In this document: positions 40,388-59,882 of the stretch, piece after piece
Position numbering within the stretch: position 1 is the first letter of the stretch
Layout: the number at the start of each line of letters is the position of its first letter
Virus record (IMG/VR): IMGVR_UViG_2526164631_000023
Source: a virus
Taxonomy: Duplodnaviria; Heunggongvirae; Uroviricota; Caudoviricetes
DNA: 64,000 nucleotides
Reading direction: 5' to 3' (one strand)
The notes under the pieces: model-generated
The model's database searches: none
What the model was told of the DNA's origin: nothing
Seen by the model: only the letters and a program-made list of their open reading frames with translations
Made by a program: the position numbers and the translations under genes

Positions 40388-40731
40388 GATGTTTCTAAAT
40401 CGGAATGTATGATCTGCATCATCGACTGAAGTCATCCATTGCTGAAATTTTTAGTTGATCTTCCATGTTTTCAGGCTTATATTCATGTCGTCGTAGCAAA
40501 TTCTGCGACCGGGTTTAGCAGCCTGAATACGAATGCGGACAACCGCAGATATCCGATATTGCGGTATTTTTGTGTCCGTAAAACCACGTTACGCCCGAAT
40601 TATGGTGGGGCGTGATGGGGAGGCTTCGGCCTGCTGGTTTCATTCGTGCCAGTCTGCTAACCCCGTCACGTCCTGCCACCCGTTTAGCAGCGGGTGCGCA
40701 GGTTGTTAAACCTACGAATGAGGCCGTAACT

Positions 40732-52563: not shown

Positions 52564-52564
52564 T

Positions 52565-52582
52565 GTGTTAGAAATCTAAAAT
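52565..52582 (+). promoter_or_regulatory. Operator-like motif copy e (GTGTTAGAAATCTAAAAT)
   Basis: Start of the non-coding region upstream of the tRNA cluster. Confidence 0.4.
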
Positions 52583-52720
52583 CACAATTCGAATGTATTG
52601 ATTGTGAAGATAACTTAACATAGAATTTTCCTTGCTGGTGGGCGGTACCCACGTTTCGCTTGCTGGGCTTGATAGTCACTTATTGGTTATTGTTCGCCCA
52701 CCAGCATTTAACAAATTAAA

Positions 52721-52737
52721 GTGTTAGAAATGTATAG
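52721..52737 (+). promoter_or_regulatory. Operator-like motif copy f (GTGTTAGAAATGTATAG)
   Basis: Second copy in the same non-coding region. Confidence 0.4.
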
Positions 52738-53798
52738 TAATGCAAGAGCACGCTTTGGCACCGTGCAGGCCAAAGTTCAGCAGGTTTAGTGCGGAAAGTG
52801 GTTTCAGAGAGAGCACTTTGCGGAGTAAACGACAATACATGTTGAGCCACGGAAGGTCTTTTTAAGGTGTTCATTGATGATGGTCCGGCAGAGAGTAACG
52901 GTACATGCTGCATCTAATCATCAATGCACATCTTCAACATTAAGGAGGCATAGGGATTTTTGTGGCGGTTACCTTTTGCCCTGAGTCTCCTTAATGTTGC
53001 GGTAATGCACCTATGCGGATGTGGCCTTGCATTGTGTCTTGAAAGAATGGGGTAAGGCCGGGGATATCCCCAGGGGGAGGCACCCCCGCTGCAACGAACA
53101 GCCACAGACGGCAGTCGAGTGATGGAAACGTGTAAAGACTTTAAACCTCGTTACGGCTGGCGTGGCAAACGCGACAACCGAGACAGAGCGGTGACGGGCG
53201 GAGAGAGTGCCGCATCAAGAAAGAAGCCGACTTGTGATCCCTTTCAGCGGGCATTTGAAAGTGAATCCAGCTCAGGCAGTCGGCTTCTTTCTTGTGTGAG
53301 ATGTAGCGTATTTGCCCATCTTCGGGTGGGCTTTTTTAGGGTTTTCGTCATGGTTAGCGACTTTGCGGCGGTTTAGAAACTGACCATTAAAGTAAATGCA
53401 AACGATGATCTGATGATGGTAGCGGCCTAAGAAGCCAGACGCCACGGGGTATGAGTCGTCCCCCGTCAAAAAAATCGACCGCAGAGTGTCCCCGTCTGTG
53501 TATTAGGGAACGGGGAGGCATAACAGGCAAGGGCGCTGGTGTGATTAACCAGATGAATGAGAAGGGTCAGGTCTTTCTGGTCAGCGCCCTTACCTGTTGC
53601 GTCCTTCCCGCGTAACAGCCATTGCTTAATGGCATCCTGGGAGAACTTCTTGTAACGGGTATATCCCGTCATGCTGAAGGCGCTAATCACGCTGGAAGCC
53701 AGGGTTGTGCATCCCCTGTTACCGAATTGCAGCCAGGGCGCGGTGCGCCGAAAAGCATACGGAGGTGGAAGCCCTCGCCGGAGACGTACCCGGCAAGT

Positions 53799-53874
53799 GA
53801 TGGTGTAGCTCAGTAGGATAGAGCAGCAGCCTTCTAAGCTGTCGGTAGGTGGTTCGAATCCACCCACCATCGCC
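53799..53874 (+). tRNA. tRNA-Arg (anticodon TCT)
   Basis: Hand-folded cloverleaf: acceptor gatggtg/caccatc, T-arm ggtggTTCGAATccacc, anticodon loop cTTCTAa, 3' CCA encoded. Confidence 0.65.
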
Positions 53875-53879
53875 AATTT

Positions 53880-53967
53880 AGGGGAGTTAGTCCGTAGGGG
53901 TAGCGGGGTAGACTGTAAATCTACTGTCATTGCGACTCGGGTGGTTCGACTCCATCACTCCCCACCA
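53880..53967 (+). tRNA. tRNA-Tyr (anticodon GTA), long variable arm
   Basis: Acceptor ggggagt/actcccc, anticodon stem-loop gtaga-cTGTAaa-tctac as in E. coli tRNA-Tyr, T-loop TTCGACT, CCA encoded; D-arm irregular. Confidence 0.55.
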
Positions 53968-53971
53968 AATT

Positions 53972-54047
53972 GCCGGTTTAGCTCAGTTGGTAGAGCAGTC
54001 GCTTTGTAAGCGAATGGTCAGCGGTTCGATCCCGTTAACCGGCACCA
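53972..54047 (+). tRNA. tRNA-Thr (anticodon TGT)
   Basis: Acceptor gccggtt/aaccggc, D-arm gctcAGTTGGTAgagc, anticodon loop tTTGTaa, T-loop TTCGATC, CCA. Confidence 0.65.
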
Positions 54048-54501
54048 ACACAACAGGTAAGAGCATTTGTAGAGTTCGACTCTCTACCGTGGGCTTTTTC
54101 CCGCGATGCGAGCCATAAATGCTCTTACCGTTGTGATGAAGTGCAGCTCTTTGAAGCAACCAGAAGATAAGCATCTGGCTTCACAACATAAACCGCAGGA
54201 ACGACCAATAAACGGTAGTCCGTATGGAGAACACCCCGTTGAGGAAGAGGTCTGGCCGGAACCGTAACCGGCACTACAACGTTGAGAACACTGGCGTAAC
54301 GGGGTCATATCCCAATCTACGAATAAATGTTGCGTTGCAGCGTGACAACCAGTGTTCTCAACATTGTGGTGAATGCGCAGGCTGATGCGCGAAAGACATT
54401 GCAGCTATTGCGGAAAAGAGCTGTTCGGCGGGGCAATTAAACGCCCGTGAGAGTCTGAAATAACCGCAAGCCGGAGATCAGCACCGGTCGCCACAATAAC
54501 G

Positions 54502-54588
54502 GGAGAGTAGGGAGCATGGTGCTCAAGCGGTCTTGAAAACCGTCCCATTGCGCAAGCGATGATGGTTCGATTCCATTACTCTCCGCCA
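54502..54588 (+). tRNA. tRNA-Ser (anticodon TGA), long variable arm
   Basis: Acceptor ggagagt/actctcc, anticodon stem-loop gcggt-cTTGAaaa-accgt (as in E. coli serT), T-loop TTCGATT, CCA. Confidence 0.55.
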
Positions 54589-54879
54589 GTGCAACGTTAA
54601 GAGTATTTGGCTAATTAAGCGAATGCCGGAAGCAGAACCGGATCACCAAATGCGTACAGGCGTCATCGCCGCCCAGCCAGCCAAGTGCTCTTACCATTGC
54701 GGTGAATGCGGCTAAGCGCACGCGGAACAGTTAAAACAGTAAAGGTGGTCTTTTTACTGGCGTAACGAGAATCCATAAGTGATCCGGCGTTAATTGTTAA
54801 CTGGTTAACGTCACCGGGAGGCACCCGGCACCGCAACCTAACAGCAATGGCGTTTTGTCTTAAAAGGTGGCTGCAAGTG

Positions 54880-55008
54880 ATGGATTTTTGGGCGTTTGCC
54901 GATAAAAACCCGGAGTGGACATTATTGTTTCTGCTGGTGGTTGCATACGGGGTAGAGCAAGCGGCAAAAGCCTTACGCGGTTCTGGCAAAAAGCGTAAGC
55001 GTAATTAA
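54880..55008 (+). CDS. Candidate small hydrophobic peptide (42 aa) between tRNA-Ser and tRNA-Ile
   Basis: SD aaggtgg 9 nt upstream of ATG; MDFWAFADKNPEWTLLFLLVVAYGVEQAAKALRGSGKKRKRN. Confidence 0.25.
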   Translation: MDFWAFADKNPEWTLLFLLVVAYGVEQAAKALRGSGKKRKRN

Positions 55009-55017
55009 CAGTAATCT

Positions 55018-55093
55018 GGCCCTTTAGCTCAGTGGTTAGAGCGGGCGACTCATAATCGCACGGTCACCGGTTCAAGTCCGGTAGGGGCCACCA
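55018..55093 (+). tRNA. tRNA-Ile2 type (anticodon CAT, ileX-like)
   Basis: ggccctttagctcagtggttagagc..gactCATAAtcgc..ggttcaagtcc..aggggccacca is near-identical in layout to E. coli ileX as remembered. Confidence 0.7.
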
Positions 55094-55545
55094 CATTTGG
55101 TTGTAACACGGCGTATGGCACATGCGTCGTTAGCGGTCTGGTGTAGCTGTTAGGTACCTTTTACTAACACTGCATGGGCACACCAGGTAGCCGGAATGTG
55201 CAAGCCCCGTTCATAGCGTCGGACTGCGGATTCACCATCCTGGCGATTCGGTGTGACAGCCGGAAGAGCACGGCGCACAACAGGAAAAGGCGTTTAATTA
55301 GCGTGAGCGCCGTTTCCGTTGTGGTAATTGCGGCTATGCGCTCGTGACGAAGCCATTTTCATTCACTACGTTCTGATAAGTGACGTCGCCAGGAGTGGCT
55401 AACCTGGCAGGTGGAGGCACCACCGCCACAACTCCTTTCAATTCATCATATAGCCGCTCAGGCTGTACCCCTTAATTAATACGAAGTTACGACATCACTA
55501 CCGGTACTTCCGGGGGATAGTCGCGCGTGTAAAAAAGGAGACGTT

Positions 55546-56121
55546 ATGTTAATGGCGAACGATAACGCATATGCAGAAGAAGATCTCATTTTGAGTGACT
55601 TCATAGGGAAGCGGGAACGCTGGACCAAAAAGCGAGAGGAACTTTACGCCTCATTAGTTCGCAAAGGCGTCAATATCGAAACCGCACAGAGCGGTGATAT
55701 GACAGTGGTAAGCGTGGATTTGCACGGTGTAAGCGTGTCAGCAATCAATCATGAGCCATACGTTGCGTTATCCGAGTCAATGGTAAGGTTAGTTAAGTTC
55801 CTGAAGTACACAGAAGCGAATAATGTAATCATTGGCAAAAAGAATATCCCTTTTTCCTCGGCTTTTTACTGGATGATGAAAGGGCTTGATGCCCGGCGGA
55901 CATCATGGCCTAAAGGGAGCTATATATCGATGTTCCGTGGCAGCATTGGCAGCAAAGAAAAGCTCTTCGAATTCTTGCCGGAAGAGGCATTCGATATTGT
56001 GGAAGGGTGCGATGTGATGGTGATGCCTCGCCTGGTAATGATGAATGGTGATTTACAGGCGCAGACAGACTGGTTTGCAACTGGTGTGGATATTATCGCG
56101 ACTGACTGGGAGGCTTTCTGA
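55546..56121 (+). CDS. Hypothetical protein (191 aa), C-terminal ..ATDWEAF
   Basis: ORF; C-terminus resembles small phage DUF-type domains. Confidence 0.3.
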   Translation: MLMANDNAYAEEDLILSDFIGKRERWTKKREELYASLVRKGVNIETAQSGDMTVVSVDLHGVSVSAINHEPYVALSESMVRLVKFLKYTEANNVIIGKKNIPFSSAFYWMMKGLDARRTSWPKGSYISMFRGSIGSKEKLFEFLPEEAFDIVEGCDVMVMPRLVMMNGDLQAQTDWFATGVDIIATDWEAF

Positions 56122-58374: not shown

Positions 58375-59882
58375 TGGCTGGCGGGCGCAAGGTTAAATGC
58401 GTCACCAGAGATCCACGCTGGCGCGATATGGTAATCAAATACCGCTACAACTTTACCCAGGCTGTTGTCGATATTTTTGGGATGTTCCCCTCCCACCAGC
58501 AGCAGCAGATCATTCAGTCCGTACAGGAAACGGGGAGTAGGACTACCGTCACGTCCGGACACGGAACGGGGAAGTCGTCCCTTACCGCGATGTTGCTGTT
58601 GATTTTTATGATCCTGTTCCCCGATGCCCGTGTCATCATTGTTGCTAACAAGATAGGCCAGGTAAAAACAGGCGTATTCAAATACGTTAAACAGTATTGG
58701 GCGAATGCAGTTAAGCGTCATGGGTGGTTGCAGACCTATTTTGTCCTCTCTGACACCATGTTTTATGAGCGCTCCCGTAAGGGGATTTGGGAAGTTCTCT
58801 GCAAAGGTTATCGACTCGGCAACGAAGAAGCGCTGGCGGGGGAACACGCGGCACATTTGCTTCTAATTCTGGATGAAGCATCTGGTATATCTGATAAGGC
58901 GATCGGCGTAATGACCGGTGCTCTTACTGAAGAAGATAACCGGATGTTGATGCTATCCCAGCCAACAAGGCCAAGTGGTTATTTCTACGATTCGCACCAT
59001 TCTCGAGCAAAAACCCCAGGCAACCCGAAAGGGATCTGGACAGCAATTGTTCTTAACTCGGAAGAATCACCGTTCGTCACACCACAATTCATCAAGGAGA
59101 AGCTTCTGGAATATGGCGGGCGCGATTCTATTGAGTACATGGTCAAGGTGCTTGGTCAGTTCCCACGAGAAATTAACGGCTATTTGCTTGGTCGTGATGA
59201 ATGCGATCGCGCTGCTCGCCGCAAGGTGTTGTTGGAGAAAAACTGGGGATGGGTGGCAACGGCTGACGTTGGTAATGGGCGAGATAAGTCGGTCCTCAAC
59301 ATCTGCAAGGTATCAGGTCACAGGGATAAGCGGCGCGTTGTTAACTTTAAGGTAATGGAGATGCCTGGCACTATGGACCCATTGGCCTTTGCTGACTTCA
59401 TATATAACGAATGTACGCCGGAAAAATACCCGAATATAACAATCGCGGTTGATGCTGATGGTTTTGGTTCTGATACGTGTGCGCAGTTGGTGCGTCGTGG
59501 TGCGAACCCGGTACGTATTCGGTGGGGAAAACCCATGTTTGCGAACAAAGACAGGGAGCGATTTGTTAATCAGCGTGCCTACGCAAATATTATGGCGCGT
59601 GATGCCATAAAGTCAGGGCGTATGCGGATAGACAGTGACCCTAAAACGGCAGAGCAAGCGTCAAAAATCCCCTTTTTACTGAATGAAGAGGGGAAAATGG
59701 CGATGATGCGCAAAGAGCACATGCGGCAAAAGCTAAACATCAAATCGCCTGACCGATGGGATACCTACTGCTTCACTATGCTGGTGGACTATGTGCCTGC
59801 TAATGAAGATATTGGTGCCGAAATGGCAACTTTCCGAGATCAGGTTCTGGCGGATATCGAAATGCCGGATCTGGATATATAA
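58374..59882 (+). CDS. pacB: Terminase large subunit, PacB-like (502 aa)
   Basis: Walker A TSGHGTGKSS, Walker B LLILDEASGI, C-terminal nuclease region with acidic residues (AVDADGFG). Confidence 0.8.
   Translation: MAGGRKVKCVTRDPRWRDMVIKYRYNFTQAVVDIFGMFPSHQQQQIIQSVQETGSRTTVTSGHGTGKSSLTAMLLLIFMILFPDARVIIVANKIGQVKTGVFKYVKQYWANAVKRHGWLQTYFVLSDTMFYERSRKGIWEVLCKGYRLGNEEALAGEHAAHLLLILDEASGISDKAIGVMTGALTEEDNRMLMLSQPTRPSGYFYDSHHSRAKTPGNPKGIWTAIVLNSEESPFVTPQFIKEKLLEYGGRDSIEYMVKVLGQFPREINGYLLGRDECDRAARRKVLLEKNWGWVATADVGNGRDKSVLNICKVSGHRDKRRVVNFKVMEMPGTMDPLAFADFIYNECTPEKYPNITIAVDADGFGSDTCAQLVRRGANPVRIRWGKPMFANKDRERFVNQRAYANIMARDAIKSGRMRIDSDPKTAEQASKIPFLLNEEGKMAMMRKEHMRQKLNIKSPDRWDTYCFTMLVDYVPANEDIGAEMATFRDQVLADIEMPDLDI

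Follow-up and report, generated by a model that had tools for sequence, protein, structure and literature searches.

The question raised by this locus is what fills the long, repeat-rich spacers between the five tRNA genes at positions 53799-55093 of IMG/VR record IMGVR_UViG_2526164631_000023, a 64,000-nucleotide stretch of Caudoviricetes DNA that is analysed here as a whole and is called the window below. A sequence-only reading had called the tRNAs by hand (Arg, Tyr, Thr, Ser and Ile), had seen two inverted repeats and a recurring element in the spacers, and had suggested that the spacers may encode stable RNAs or decayed tRNAs. The answer that we favour, with a probability of roughly 60%, is that the region is a variable tRNA and non-coding RNA island of a D6/P1-family phage-plasmid, made of exchangeable structured RNA cassettes. 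The window is itself a D6/P1-family phage-plasmid: Rfam recognises, at positions 40477-40683, C4 antisense RNA together with the a1/b1 sites that it targets (71.9 and 52.2 bits), and since this RNA marks the P1-type immunity I region, the family assignment is confirmed. The region is 100% identical to Escherichia coli plasmid NZ_CP066033.1, phage D6 matches it with 81% coverage and 89% identity, and P7 and P1 match over their ban-operon leaders.

Both inverted repeats were recovered, the first as 13 bp at 54056-54068 and 54117-54129 (100% complementary), the second as 23 nt at 54272-54294 and 54349-54371 (91% complementary), and the recurring element has four copies, at 54117, 54350, 54683 and 55306. 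Across the 64 kb, TTGYGGTGAATGCG has exact and near-exact matches in this region only, bar one match with two mismatches at 59192. Viral contigs were scanned for the recurring motif and window segments were then compared by BLAST, which defined two kinds of module (Table 1). The first, the H elements, are long hairpins of 16-26 bp with a variable loop, seven of which lie in the window; their 5' arm typically reads CACAAC[A]GGTAAGRGC... and their 3' arm ...GCYCTTACCGTTGTG. HA, HB and HC start within two bases of a tRNA end or on the 3' strand of the closing stem of an M element, the second kind of module; HC begins on the last two bases of tRNA-Ser. H0 and HD each come after a module-like segment, and H0 is in turn followed by one that ends in GCCGG-N8-CCGGC (53777-53794), just 5' of tRNA-Arg. 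The HA loop holds a T-arm-like hairpin (GTAGAG-TTCGACT-CTCTAC), and the HA element is also found in a lambdoid prophage (L124), after a hairpin resembling the 3' end of transfer-messenger RNA (tmRNA). The arm pairs were collected by a hairpin search restricted to the array loci, and show paired stem changes across H types, for example GGTAAGAGC/GCTCTTACC, GTTGAGAAC/GTTCTCAAC and GGAAAAGGCG/CGCCGTTTCC. Among 21 distinct arm pairs we counted 27 G·U pairs against 2 single A·C mismatches, an excess that points to RNA folding on the plus strand and not to a DNA palindrome; three of the non-Watson-Crick pairs of HC are likewise U·G on the plus strand.

The M elements, four in the window, are cloverleaf-like, 93-160 nt long, and combine a hypervariable interior with conserved ends. 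The 5' end is TTGYGGTGAAUGCG followed by a small hairpin, and a 3' hairpin abuts CACCRCAA, which is complementary to the 5' end; as modelled, the layout is tRNA-like: the closing stem encloses a 5' hairpin, then a variable core, and last a 3' hairpin that stacks on this stem. In MB, helix P1 is UUGUGGUG/CGCCACAA, helix P2 is GCGCA-GGCUGA-UGCGC and helix P3 is GCCGG-AGAUCAGCA-CCGGU, the loops of P2 and P3 being complementary; the complementary parts of the 5' and 3' hairpin loops read GCUGA/UCAGC. In the type I modules the loop of the 3' hairpin is kept and its stem is compensated (GGUGG-AGGCA-CCACC in MD versus CCGGG-AGGCA-CCCGG in MC). Covariation was tested on 23 distinct type II ends, with 500 shuffles and slid controls. 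Helices P1, P2 and P3 are paired in 90% of the cells, the slid controls in 28-54%, and both sides have changed in 8 of 23 pairs; in four of five measures none of the 500 shuffles reached the observed value, the fifth (further pair types) not being distinct (237/500). Most unpaired cells come from one subtype that lies a column out of register. MA is 98-100% identical in 27 related loci, including P1, where it lies beneath the minus-strand plp coding sequence, and the Thr-Ser spacer folds with z = -5.5, as well as which none of 100 shuffles folds. Comparative modelling shows the spacers to hold two families of conserved, predicted plus-strand RNA structures.

One of these modules resembles an RNA family already on record. 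MC scores 40.8 bits with the Rfam model STnc100 (RF02076; cut-off 47, E = 6.9e-7, model positions 31-147 of 206), and alignment and fold both reveal in it the STnc100 closing helix with the abutting 3' hairpin CCGGG-AGGCA-CCCGG; the model matches no other module of the window. STnc100 is a prophage small RNA (sRNA) detected by reverse-transcription PCR in outer-membrane-vesicle preparations, situated 75 nt downstream of stx2 and linked to PasD, an sRNA from Hfq RIL-seq (PMC12370729; bioRxiv 10.64898/2026.05.13.724894). By its primer sequences it starts with CAUGGUGAAU and a hairpin and ends in CACCGGGAGGCACCCGGCACCAUG (PMC12370729), an end architecture common to MC and MD, for which the window has UUGCGGUGAAU... 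and ...CACCGGGAGGCACCCGGCACCGCAA. STnc100/PasD (in Salmonella and in enterohaemorrhagic and enteropathogenic E. coli) and the window modules both lie in untranslated phage leaders. They differ in that the closing stem of MC has another sequence with compensatory changes, that the interior is different, and that the window modules stand in tandem with tRNAs on a plasmid-prophage. If the likeness holds, one cassette type would belong to the orphan sRNA family STnc100/PasD, and several orphan prophage sRNAs would gain a common architectural context. The idea of stable RNAs in the spacers therefore fits what is found (conserved H and M modules, covariation in M, and a sub-threshold STnc100 match) and is not proven by it.

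Could the spacers instead be neutral remnants of decayed tRNAs and of past recombination, so that only the five tRNAs matter? Such an origin would account for the T-arm-like motifs in H loops (GAGTTCGACTCTC in HA, GAGGGTTCGAATCCCT in an HA2 variant), for the tRNA-like topology of the M modules, for the lack of a significant fold in MA, and for a related locus (L234) in which a true tRNA-Asn takes the slot held elsewhere by an H hairpin. Neutral decay is nevertheless hard to reconcile with modules that stay 97-100% identical on backbones differing by 10-25%, with compensatory stem changes, with 27 G·U against 2 A·C, a ratio unexpected in decaying DNA, and with the keeping of the same modules in unrelated phage types. 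When extra or decayed tRNAs were sought in the spacers, no Rfam tRNA model matched at E<=10; ARAGORN at 60-80% thresholds returned many mutually inconsistent calls on both strands, which were for this reason treated as noise. We consider neutral decay improbable, and the decayed tRNAs of the sequence-only reading find no support in the form proposed. A tRNA-derived origin of the modules is possible, given their tRNA-like topology and the T-arm-like GGTTCGA motifs in some hairpin loops.

That the structured RNAs move as units is seen from their relatives. A signature scan yielded 40 related loci (the window and 39 others) with 29 architectures, in which modules of 97-100% identity are present or absent and vary in number and order. 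Asn or Arg takes the first tRNA slot; tRNA-Tyr, which may be present or absent, tRNA-Ser and the tci genes are variable; and the Thr-to-Ser interval is filled by HA-Me, HB-Mc, HA2-MA, HA2-MB-HA3-MA-HB-Mc, and others. The window has the order Arg-Tyr-Thr-HA1-MA-HB-MB-Ser-HC-MC-tciC-Ile2, which none of the 39 other loci matches, while the same five tRNAs occur together in three of them (L008, L049 and L127). In the spacers compared, identity breaks off at the conserved module ends, CACAAC... and ...GTTGTGGTGAAT. Lambdoid prophages, too, have these H and M elements, in the gap of about 1 kb between the Q antiterminator and holin genes, which is also the reported location of STnc100. As judged from these alignments, the elements are shown to behave as interchangeable cassettes, and P1-like plasmid-prophages would exchange RNA cassettes with lambdoid prophages, among them those of Stx type. 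Two loci deserve separate mention. In L234 the tRNA-Asn lies about 130-200 nt downstream of a small tag-like reading frame (described below), where other loci have an H hairpin or a hairpin bearing a T-arm, so that tRNAs and H elements appear to be interchangeable cassettes. In L097 (4700-7000), Phe, Asn and CAT tRNAs are interleaved with H and M modules and the tag module follows the CAT tRNA, from which it appears that the cassette system occurs in more than one layout. The tRNA cluster of the lytic coliphage T4 encodes, besides its tRNAs, stable RNAs of unknown function (species 1 and 2); there, too, tRNA genes stand beside tRNA-sized structured RNAs, in one processed transcript. Unlike the T4 cluster, the island of the window is carried by a temperate plasmid-prophage and its array is hypervariable, and the M and H elements are likened to the T4 RNAs by layout only.

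The same shuffling raises the possibility that the repeats act as DNA, as recombination or cassette-boundary sites (integron-like or of the short-homology type) whose sole role is the swapping of cassettes. The position of the architecture breakpoints at the module ends and the number of architectures speak for such sites, as does the outline of imperfect inverted repeats with variable centres, which recalls attC. Compared by eye with the attC consensus RYYYAAC/GTTRRRY, however, the cores CACAAC/GTTGTG each have 1-2 mismatches, no integron integrase is present among the flanking open reading frames (ORFs) examined (within about 2.5 kb), and integron attC cassettes were rejected on these two grounds. 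Nor were inverted copies of modules seen, although their ends are inverted repeats, and a DNA site leaves the G·U asymmetry and the covariation of P2 and P3 unexplained. As the only role of the repeats, this is in our estimate no likelier than neutral decay; as a route of cassette movement, it is compatible with an island of structured RNA cassettes.

Most H 3' arms contain a boxA-like string, always base-paired; boxA reads CGCUCUUA in lambda and UGCUCUUUAACAA in rrn operons, and boxA/nut sites need a single-stranded, GCUCUUUA-like boxA next to a boxB hairpin, bound by NusB-NusE or N. Least probable of the three alternatives is that the H elements are nut/boxA-type antitermination or anti-Rho signals for a long untranslated leader, with the M elements incidental: many 3' arms do contain GCUCUUA or GCUCUUU, the boxA core, the elements do lie in a Q-dependent lambdoid late leader downstream of terminator-like hairpins, and a 3-kb untranslated RNA would presumably need protection from Rho, but the string is part of a 16-26-bp stem, on its 3' side, and would be sequestered once made, it is not in all H types (HB has GUUCUCAAC, HD CGCCGUUUCC), and no N-like or Q-like gene turned up near the array, where no search aimed at them was made.

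On the reading that we prefer, an island of exchangeable structured RNA cassettes, one long untranslated precursor would be transcribed across the region, RNase P and RNase E would cut it to release the tRNAs, and RNase III or RNase E would cut at the 16-26-bp H stems after the acceptor-like helices and so separate the units. The M modules would then be released and accumulate as stable, STnc100-like sRNAs, and recombination between the short conserved ends would move cassettes, including by exchange with the late leaders of lambdoid prophages. The suggested processing logic is a hairpin after every acceptor-like stem. Several observations weigh against this reading. Co-transcription, processing, and stability of the M and H RNAs are all inferred, and a strong terminator-like hairpin (53314-53337) falls inside the proposed transcription unit. 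The second spacer as a whole folds no better than shuffles (z = -0.3); the minimum free energy of MA is not better either (z = +0.4), and its isolated fold does not have the M structure. The same 6-9 nt serve both the H 5' arms and the M closing strands, so that two helices compete at the bases of these elements. The covariation comes from related sequences with few independent events, and the loop-loop pairing has a single covarying pair, which changes from G-C to A-U in 2 sequences. Neither MC nor the lambdoid copies reach the STnc100 gathering score. Lastly, the E. coli codon frequencies on which the codon ratios given below are based are background values and not computed ones.

Table 1. 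Positions and properties of the RNA elements and the small reading frame in the leader region (window coordinates).
Feature	Position	Strand	Remarks
H-type leader hairpin	52934..53001	+	3' arm ending ...AATGTTGCG
H-type leader hairpin, second	53216..53294	+	
Terminator-like hairpin	53314..53337	+	7-bp stem, UUCG loop, U6; just 5' of tag module
tmRNA-like tag module	53341..53466	+	Conserved leader, start-less frame 53398-53430, covarying hairpin 53443-53466
H0	53522..53598	+	Upstream of tRNAs; fold z = -5.7
tRNA-Arg (TCT)	53799..53875	+	Reads AGA; ARAGORN; Rfam 69.7 bits; PGAP
tRNA-Tyr (GTA)	53881..53967	+	Class II, long variable arm; ARAGORN; Rfam 41.9 bits; PGAP
tRNA-Thr (TGT)	53972..54047	+	ARAGORN; Rfam 67.2 bits; 86% identical to P1 trnT
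HA	54049..54135	+	19-bp stem, one bulged A; -43.1 kcal/mol, z = -7.7
MA	54131..54279	+	5' TTGTGATGAAGTGC; 3' hairpin CCGG-N8-CCGG then CACTACAA; interior poorly structured
HB	54272..54371	+	Stem 23 nt per arm, 91% complementary; 99-100% identical in P1 and D6
MB	54364..54496	+	Type II; isolated fold recovers P1, P2, P3
tRNA-Ser (TGA)	54502..54588	+	Atypical D-arm, G73 discriminator, CCA encoded; ARAGORN; PGAP
HC	54587..54704	+	Imperfect stem, ~26 nt per arm (fold); 97-100% conserved in 38 loci
MC	54697..54836	+	Type I, STnc100-like; closing stem and terminal hairpins, z = -2.7
TciC homologue	54880..55008	+	Small membrane-protein ORF, 42 aa; start possibly 54847 (53 aa); PGAP hypothetical protein
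tRNA-Ile2 (CAT)	55018..55093	+	ileX-like; ARAGORN Met(cat); PGAP tRNA-Ile
HD	55276..55323	+	16 paired bases per arm, short loop; arms GCACAACAGGAAAAGGCG / CGCCGTTTCCGTTGTG
MD	55319..55431	+	Type I; closing stem and terminal hairpins, z = -2.3

The five tRNA genes themselves are genuine. A default ARAGORN run on the whole window finds exactly these five, all on the plus strand and with the same coordinates as had been called by hand, and the RefSeq annotation of NZ_CP066033.1 by the Prokaryotic Genome Annotation Pipeline (PGAP) has all of them (Ile, Ser, Thr, Tyr, Arg), so that the hand calls stand, including the reading of the CAT tRNA as Ile2. Four of the five also pass the gathering score of the Rfam tRNA model (RF00005, 29 bits), namely Arg, Thr and CAT (67-70 bits) and Tyr (41.9 bits). 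The exception, tRNA-Ser, fails the Rfam thresholds, its best model being tRNA-Sec (43.5 bits, cut-off 47); the annotation of D6 records similar trouble with tRNAscan-SE on the Ser gene, which is conserved to 97-100% in relatives. The CAT tRNA is 99% identical to P1 trnI, listed in its record as tRNA-Ile2 and 89% identical to E. coli ileX, and from this ileX-type body it is identified as tRNA-Ile2, a class of CAU tRNAs that depends on lysidine. The Arg, Tyr and Ser tRNAs are about 80-84% identical to those of rV5-like and T4-like phages. As had been noted, the set is not that of P1 (Asn, Thr, Ile). It is otherwise an ordinary, already annotated set, a recombinant of cassettes seen in relatives, and tRNA genes are a known feature of P1-family phages.

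What the tRNAs may do is partly suggested by codon usage. In 39 long ORFs of the window, compared with background frequencies for E. coli, AGA is used 2.5 times, AUA 2.7 times, ACA 2.8 times, and UCA 1.9 times as often, and the Tyr codons 1.0 times. Codon supplementation would explain four of the five tRNAs in this way: they would supply AGA, AUA, ACA and UCA, used two to three times more by the phage than by its host. Some phage tRNAs are proposed to replace species that are cut by host defences, and some of the present ones, notably Tyr, may replace tRNAs cut by host anticodon nucleases; the Tyr gene, the exchange of Asn for Arg, and a neighbouring Tad2-like gene would fit this idea.

About 370 nt upstream of the tRNA array, outside the part covered by the sequence-only reading, lies a module of a different kind. 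Its frame at 53398-53430 (GCA AAC GAT GAT CTG ATG ATG GTA GCG GCC TAA) reads ANDDLMMVAA*; an in-frame UAG stands 8 codons upstream, with no ATG, GTG or TTG in between. The SsrA tag of E. coli is ANDENYALAA. The tag module is kept in P1, P7, D6 and the Q-to-holin gaps of lambdoid prophages. Tags of relatives were gathered through an anchor on the upstream motif only, the tag itself taking no part in the selection, and the 111 copies obtained have 24 distinct frames, all of ten codons and a stop. As many as six nucleotide variants code for a single peptide, the last Ala is found with each of the four GCN codons, the stop is TAA, TGA or TAG, and changes at the conserved codons number 2, 3 and 11 at codon positions 1, 2 and 3. 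The constancy of ten codons, together with change that is mostly at third positions, is a coding signature; the module, like tmRNA, has a start-less frame under coding constraint with a degron-like ...AA end.

The likeness to tmRNA extends to a start-less frame of 10 codons that begins with ANDD/E and ends in AA or VA and a stop, followed by a hairpin, which covaries in the relatives. It does not extend to an acceptor 5' strand, an encoded CCA, or a canonical T-loop. The Rfam models tmRNA_permuted and alpha_tmRNA give weak, sub-threshold matches over 53325-53483, and none of the Rfam tmRNA models matches above threshold; ARAGORN by default finds no tmRNA in the window nor in 9 related loci with the tag module, and in relaxed mode it recognises the resume-region consensus next to an unconvincing tRNA-like domain. 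A canonical tmRNA was accordingly rejected, no tRNA-like domain (G3·U70 acceptor, T-arm, CCA) having been found. Units in lambdoid prophages (L124 3557-3830, L139, L097, and others) have, 242-263 nt after the resume codon, a T-arm-like hairpin and CCGUYAGCUCC-ACGAAAC-GGAGC. In E. coli, ssrA ends in GCGGGUUCAACUCCCGC-CAGCUCC-ACCA at 264 nt after the resume codon; the lambdoid 3' piece resembles this end at a matching distance, but a loop closes it where ssrA ends in CCA. There is no consistent 5' acceptor strand: only some of the units show GGGGCUU or GGGGCAG. A profile of 17 lambdoid units aligns with E. coli ssrA weakly above shuffles (8/1000 for the full length, 38/1000 for the 3' end). The leader had no match to annotated ssrA in E. 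coli genomes; its chromosomal matches lie in prophages, in Q-to-holin gaps that carry no annotation. In P1 the tmRNA-3'-like piece lies 1043 nt downstream of the tag, and a search for this hairpin in the window found none, so that both window and P1 have the coding-like part with no 3' part adjoining. We classify the tag module, from its sequence features, as a putative tmRNA-like coding module and not as a tmRNA.

An exhaustive survey of 2014 lists phage ssrA in mycobacteriophages and Bacillus phage G only (PMC4131195). Should the ANDD...AA frame be confirmed, coliphages would have in it their first tmRNA-like coding module, and in the literature searched (on the spacers, on RNAs of the P1-family tRNA region, and on phage tmRNA-like modules) both the cassette architecture and the tag module appear to be undescribed. 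A wider reading, tentative and with the odds clearly against it, is that all cassettes of this hypervariable locus imitate or derive from the RNAs of translation: true tRNAs, tRNA-like hairpins, cloverleaf-like STnc100-type modules, and a tag module derived from tmRNA, with its peptide frame under coding selection in P1-like and in lambdoid phages. These phages would then possess a tmRNA of non-canonical form, which might be split or act in trans and which, with the tRNAs, would take over or protect translation. Such an RNA might, together with the tRNAs, counter anticodon nucleases or ribosome-stalling defences, with which an adjacent Tad2 gene would fit. Upstream of the tag module, the long hairpin 53216-53294 is followed by the terminator-like hairpin 53314-53337, and the two could end a separate leader sRNA gene; the 'dicF-like region' of P1 is annotated in roughly the part of its leader that matches 53216-53337. 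A comparable hairpin with a U-run precedes the tag-module unit in several lambdoid loci.

The island occupies an interval of about 3 kb (52564-55545) that has no long ORF, the longest conserved one being the 53-aa TciC-like frame, and that is bounded by a pmgS-like gene and a Tad2-like gene. The only promoter-type site found is a generic sigma-70-like one at 52598-52626; a search for C1 operators was not made. According to its record, the homologous stretch of P1 comprises the C1 operator (Op72) with Pban, the dicF-like region, trnA(Asn), trnT(Thr), plp and upl (on the opposite strand), tciA, tciB, tciC, trnI, and ban. The ban-operon tRNA cluster of P1, P7 and D6 has the same position and orientation as the window array: leader, tRNAs, a tci gene and trnI follow one another in one orientation on a P1/D6-like backbone, and by this synteny the region is identified as the counterpart of the C1-controlled trnA-trnT...trnI-ban leader of P1. 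The pre-tRNA leader is 91% identical to that of P1 and 99% to that of D6, with a D6-type part (52564-53330) that is unlike the leader of P1, and MA and HB are 99-100% identical to the P1-family copies. Differences lie in the first tRNA slot, where the window has Arg(TCT) and P1, P7 and D6 have tRNA-Asn, and in the additional tRNA-Tyr of the window; tRNA-Ser is common to the window, D6, and the P7 sequence. The tciA and tciB genes of P1 and D6 are absent, whereas a TciC homologue is kept (MDFWAFADKNPEW..., aligning with MGFWDFADKHP... of P1 TciC). Downstream, P1 has ban, which is not found at this place in the window; there the order is tad2-like, orf5, lpa, as in D6, with Lpa scoring 192 bits, and homologues of D6 orf5 and orf6 also flank the region.

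The gene directly 3' of the array (55546-56121) has a Tad2-like domain (Pfam, 39.1 bits), with which its PGAP name agrees. Tad2 is an anti-defence family that acts against Thoeris. With this gene the tRNA and non-coding RNA island adjoins an anti-defence gene, and the locus could represent a recombination hot spot next to anti-defence genes. On the P1 genome (L001 1724-2293), the strand opposite MA, HB and the hairpin that resembles a tmRNA 3' end is annotated with the coding sequences plp and upl, of which plp overlaps trnT. The plp-like ORF of the window (54084-54308, minus strand) is cut to 74 aa, and its ends lie within exchangeable modules. The plp coding sequence of P1 is doubtful and probably not a gene, and the annotations of plp and upl together may not represent genes. 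PGAP also lists a 74-aa hypothetical protein at 53466-53690 on the minus strand, spanning H0 and the segment after the tag, which is doubtful as a gene because it overlies conserved plus-strand RNA structure.

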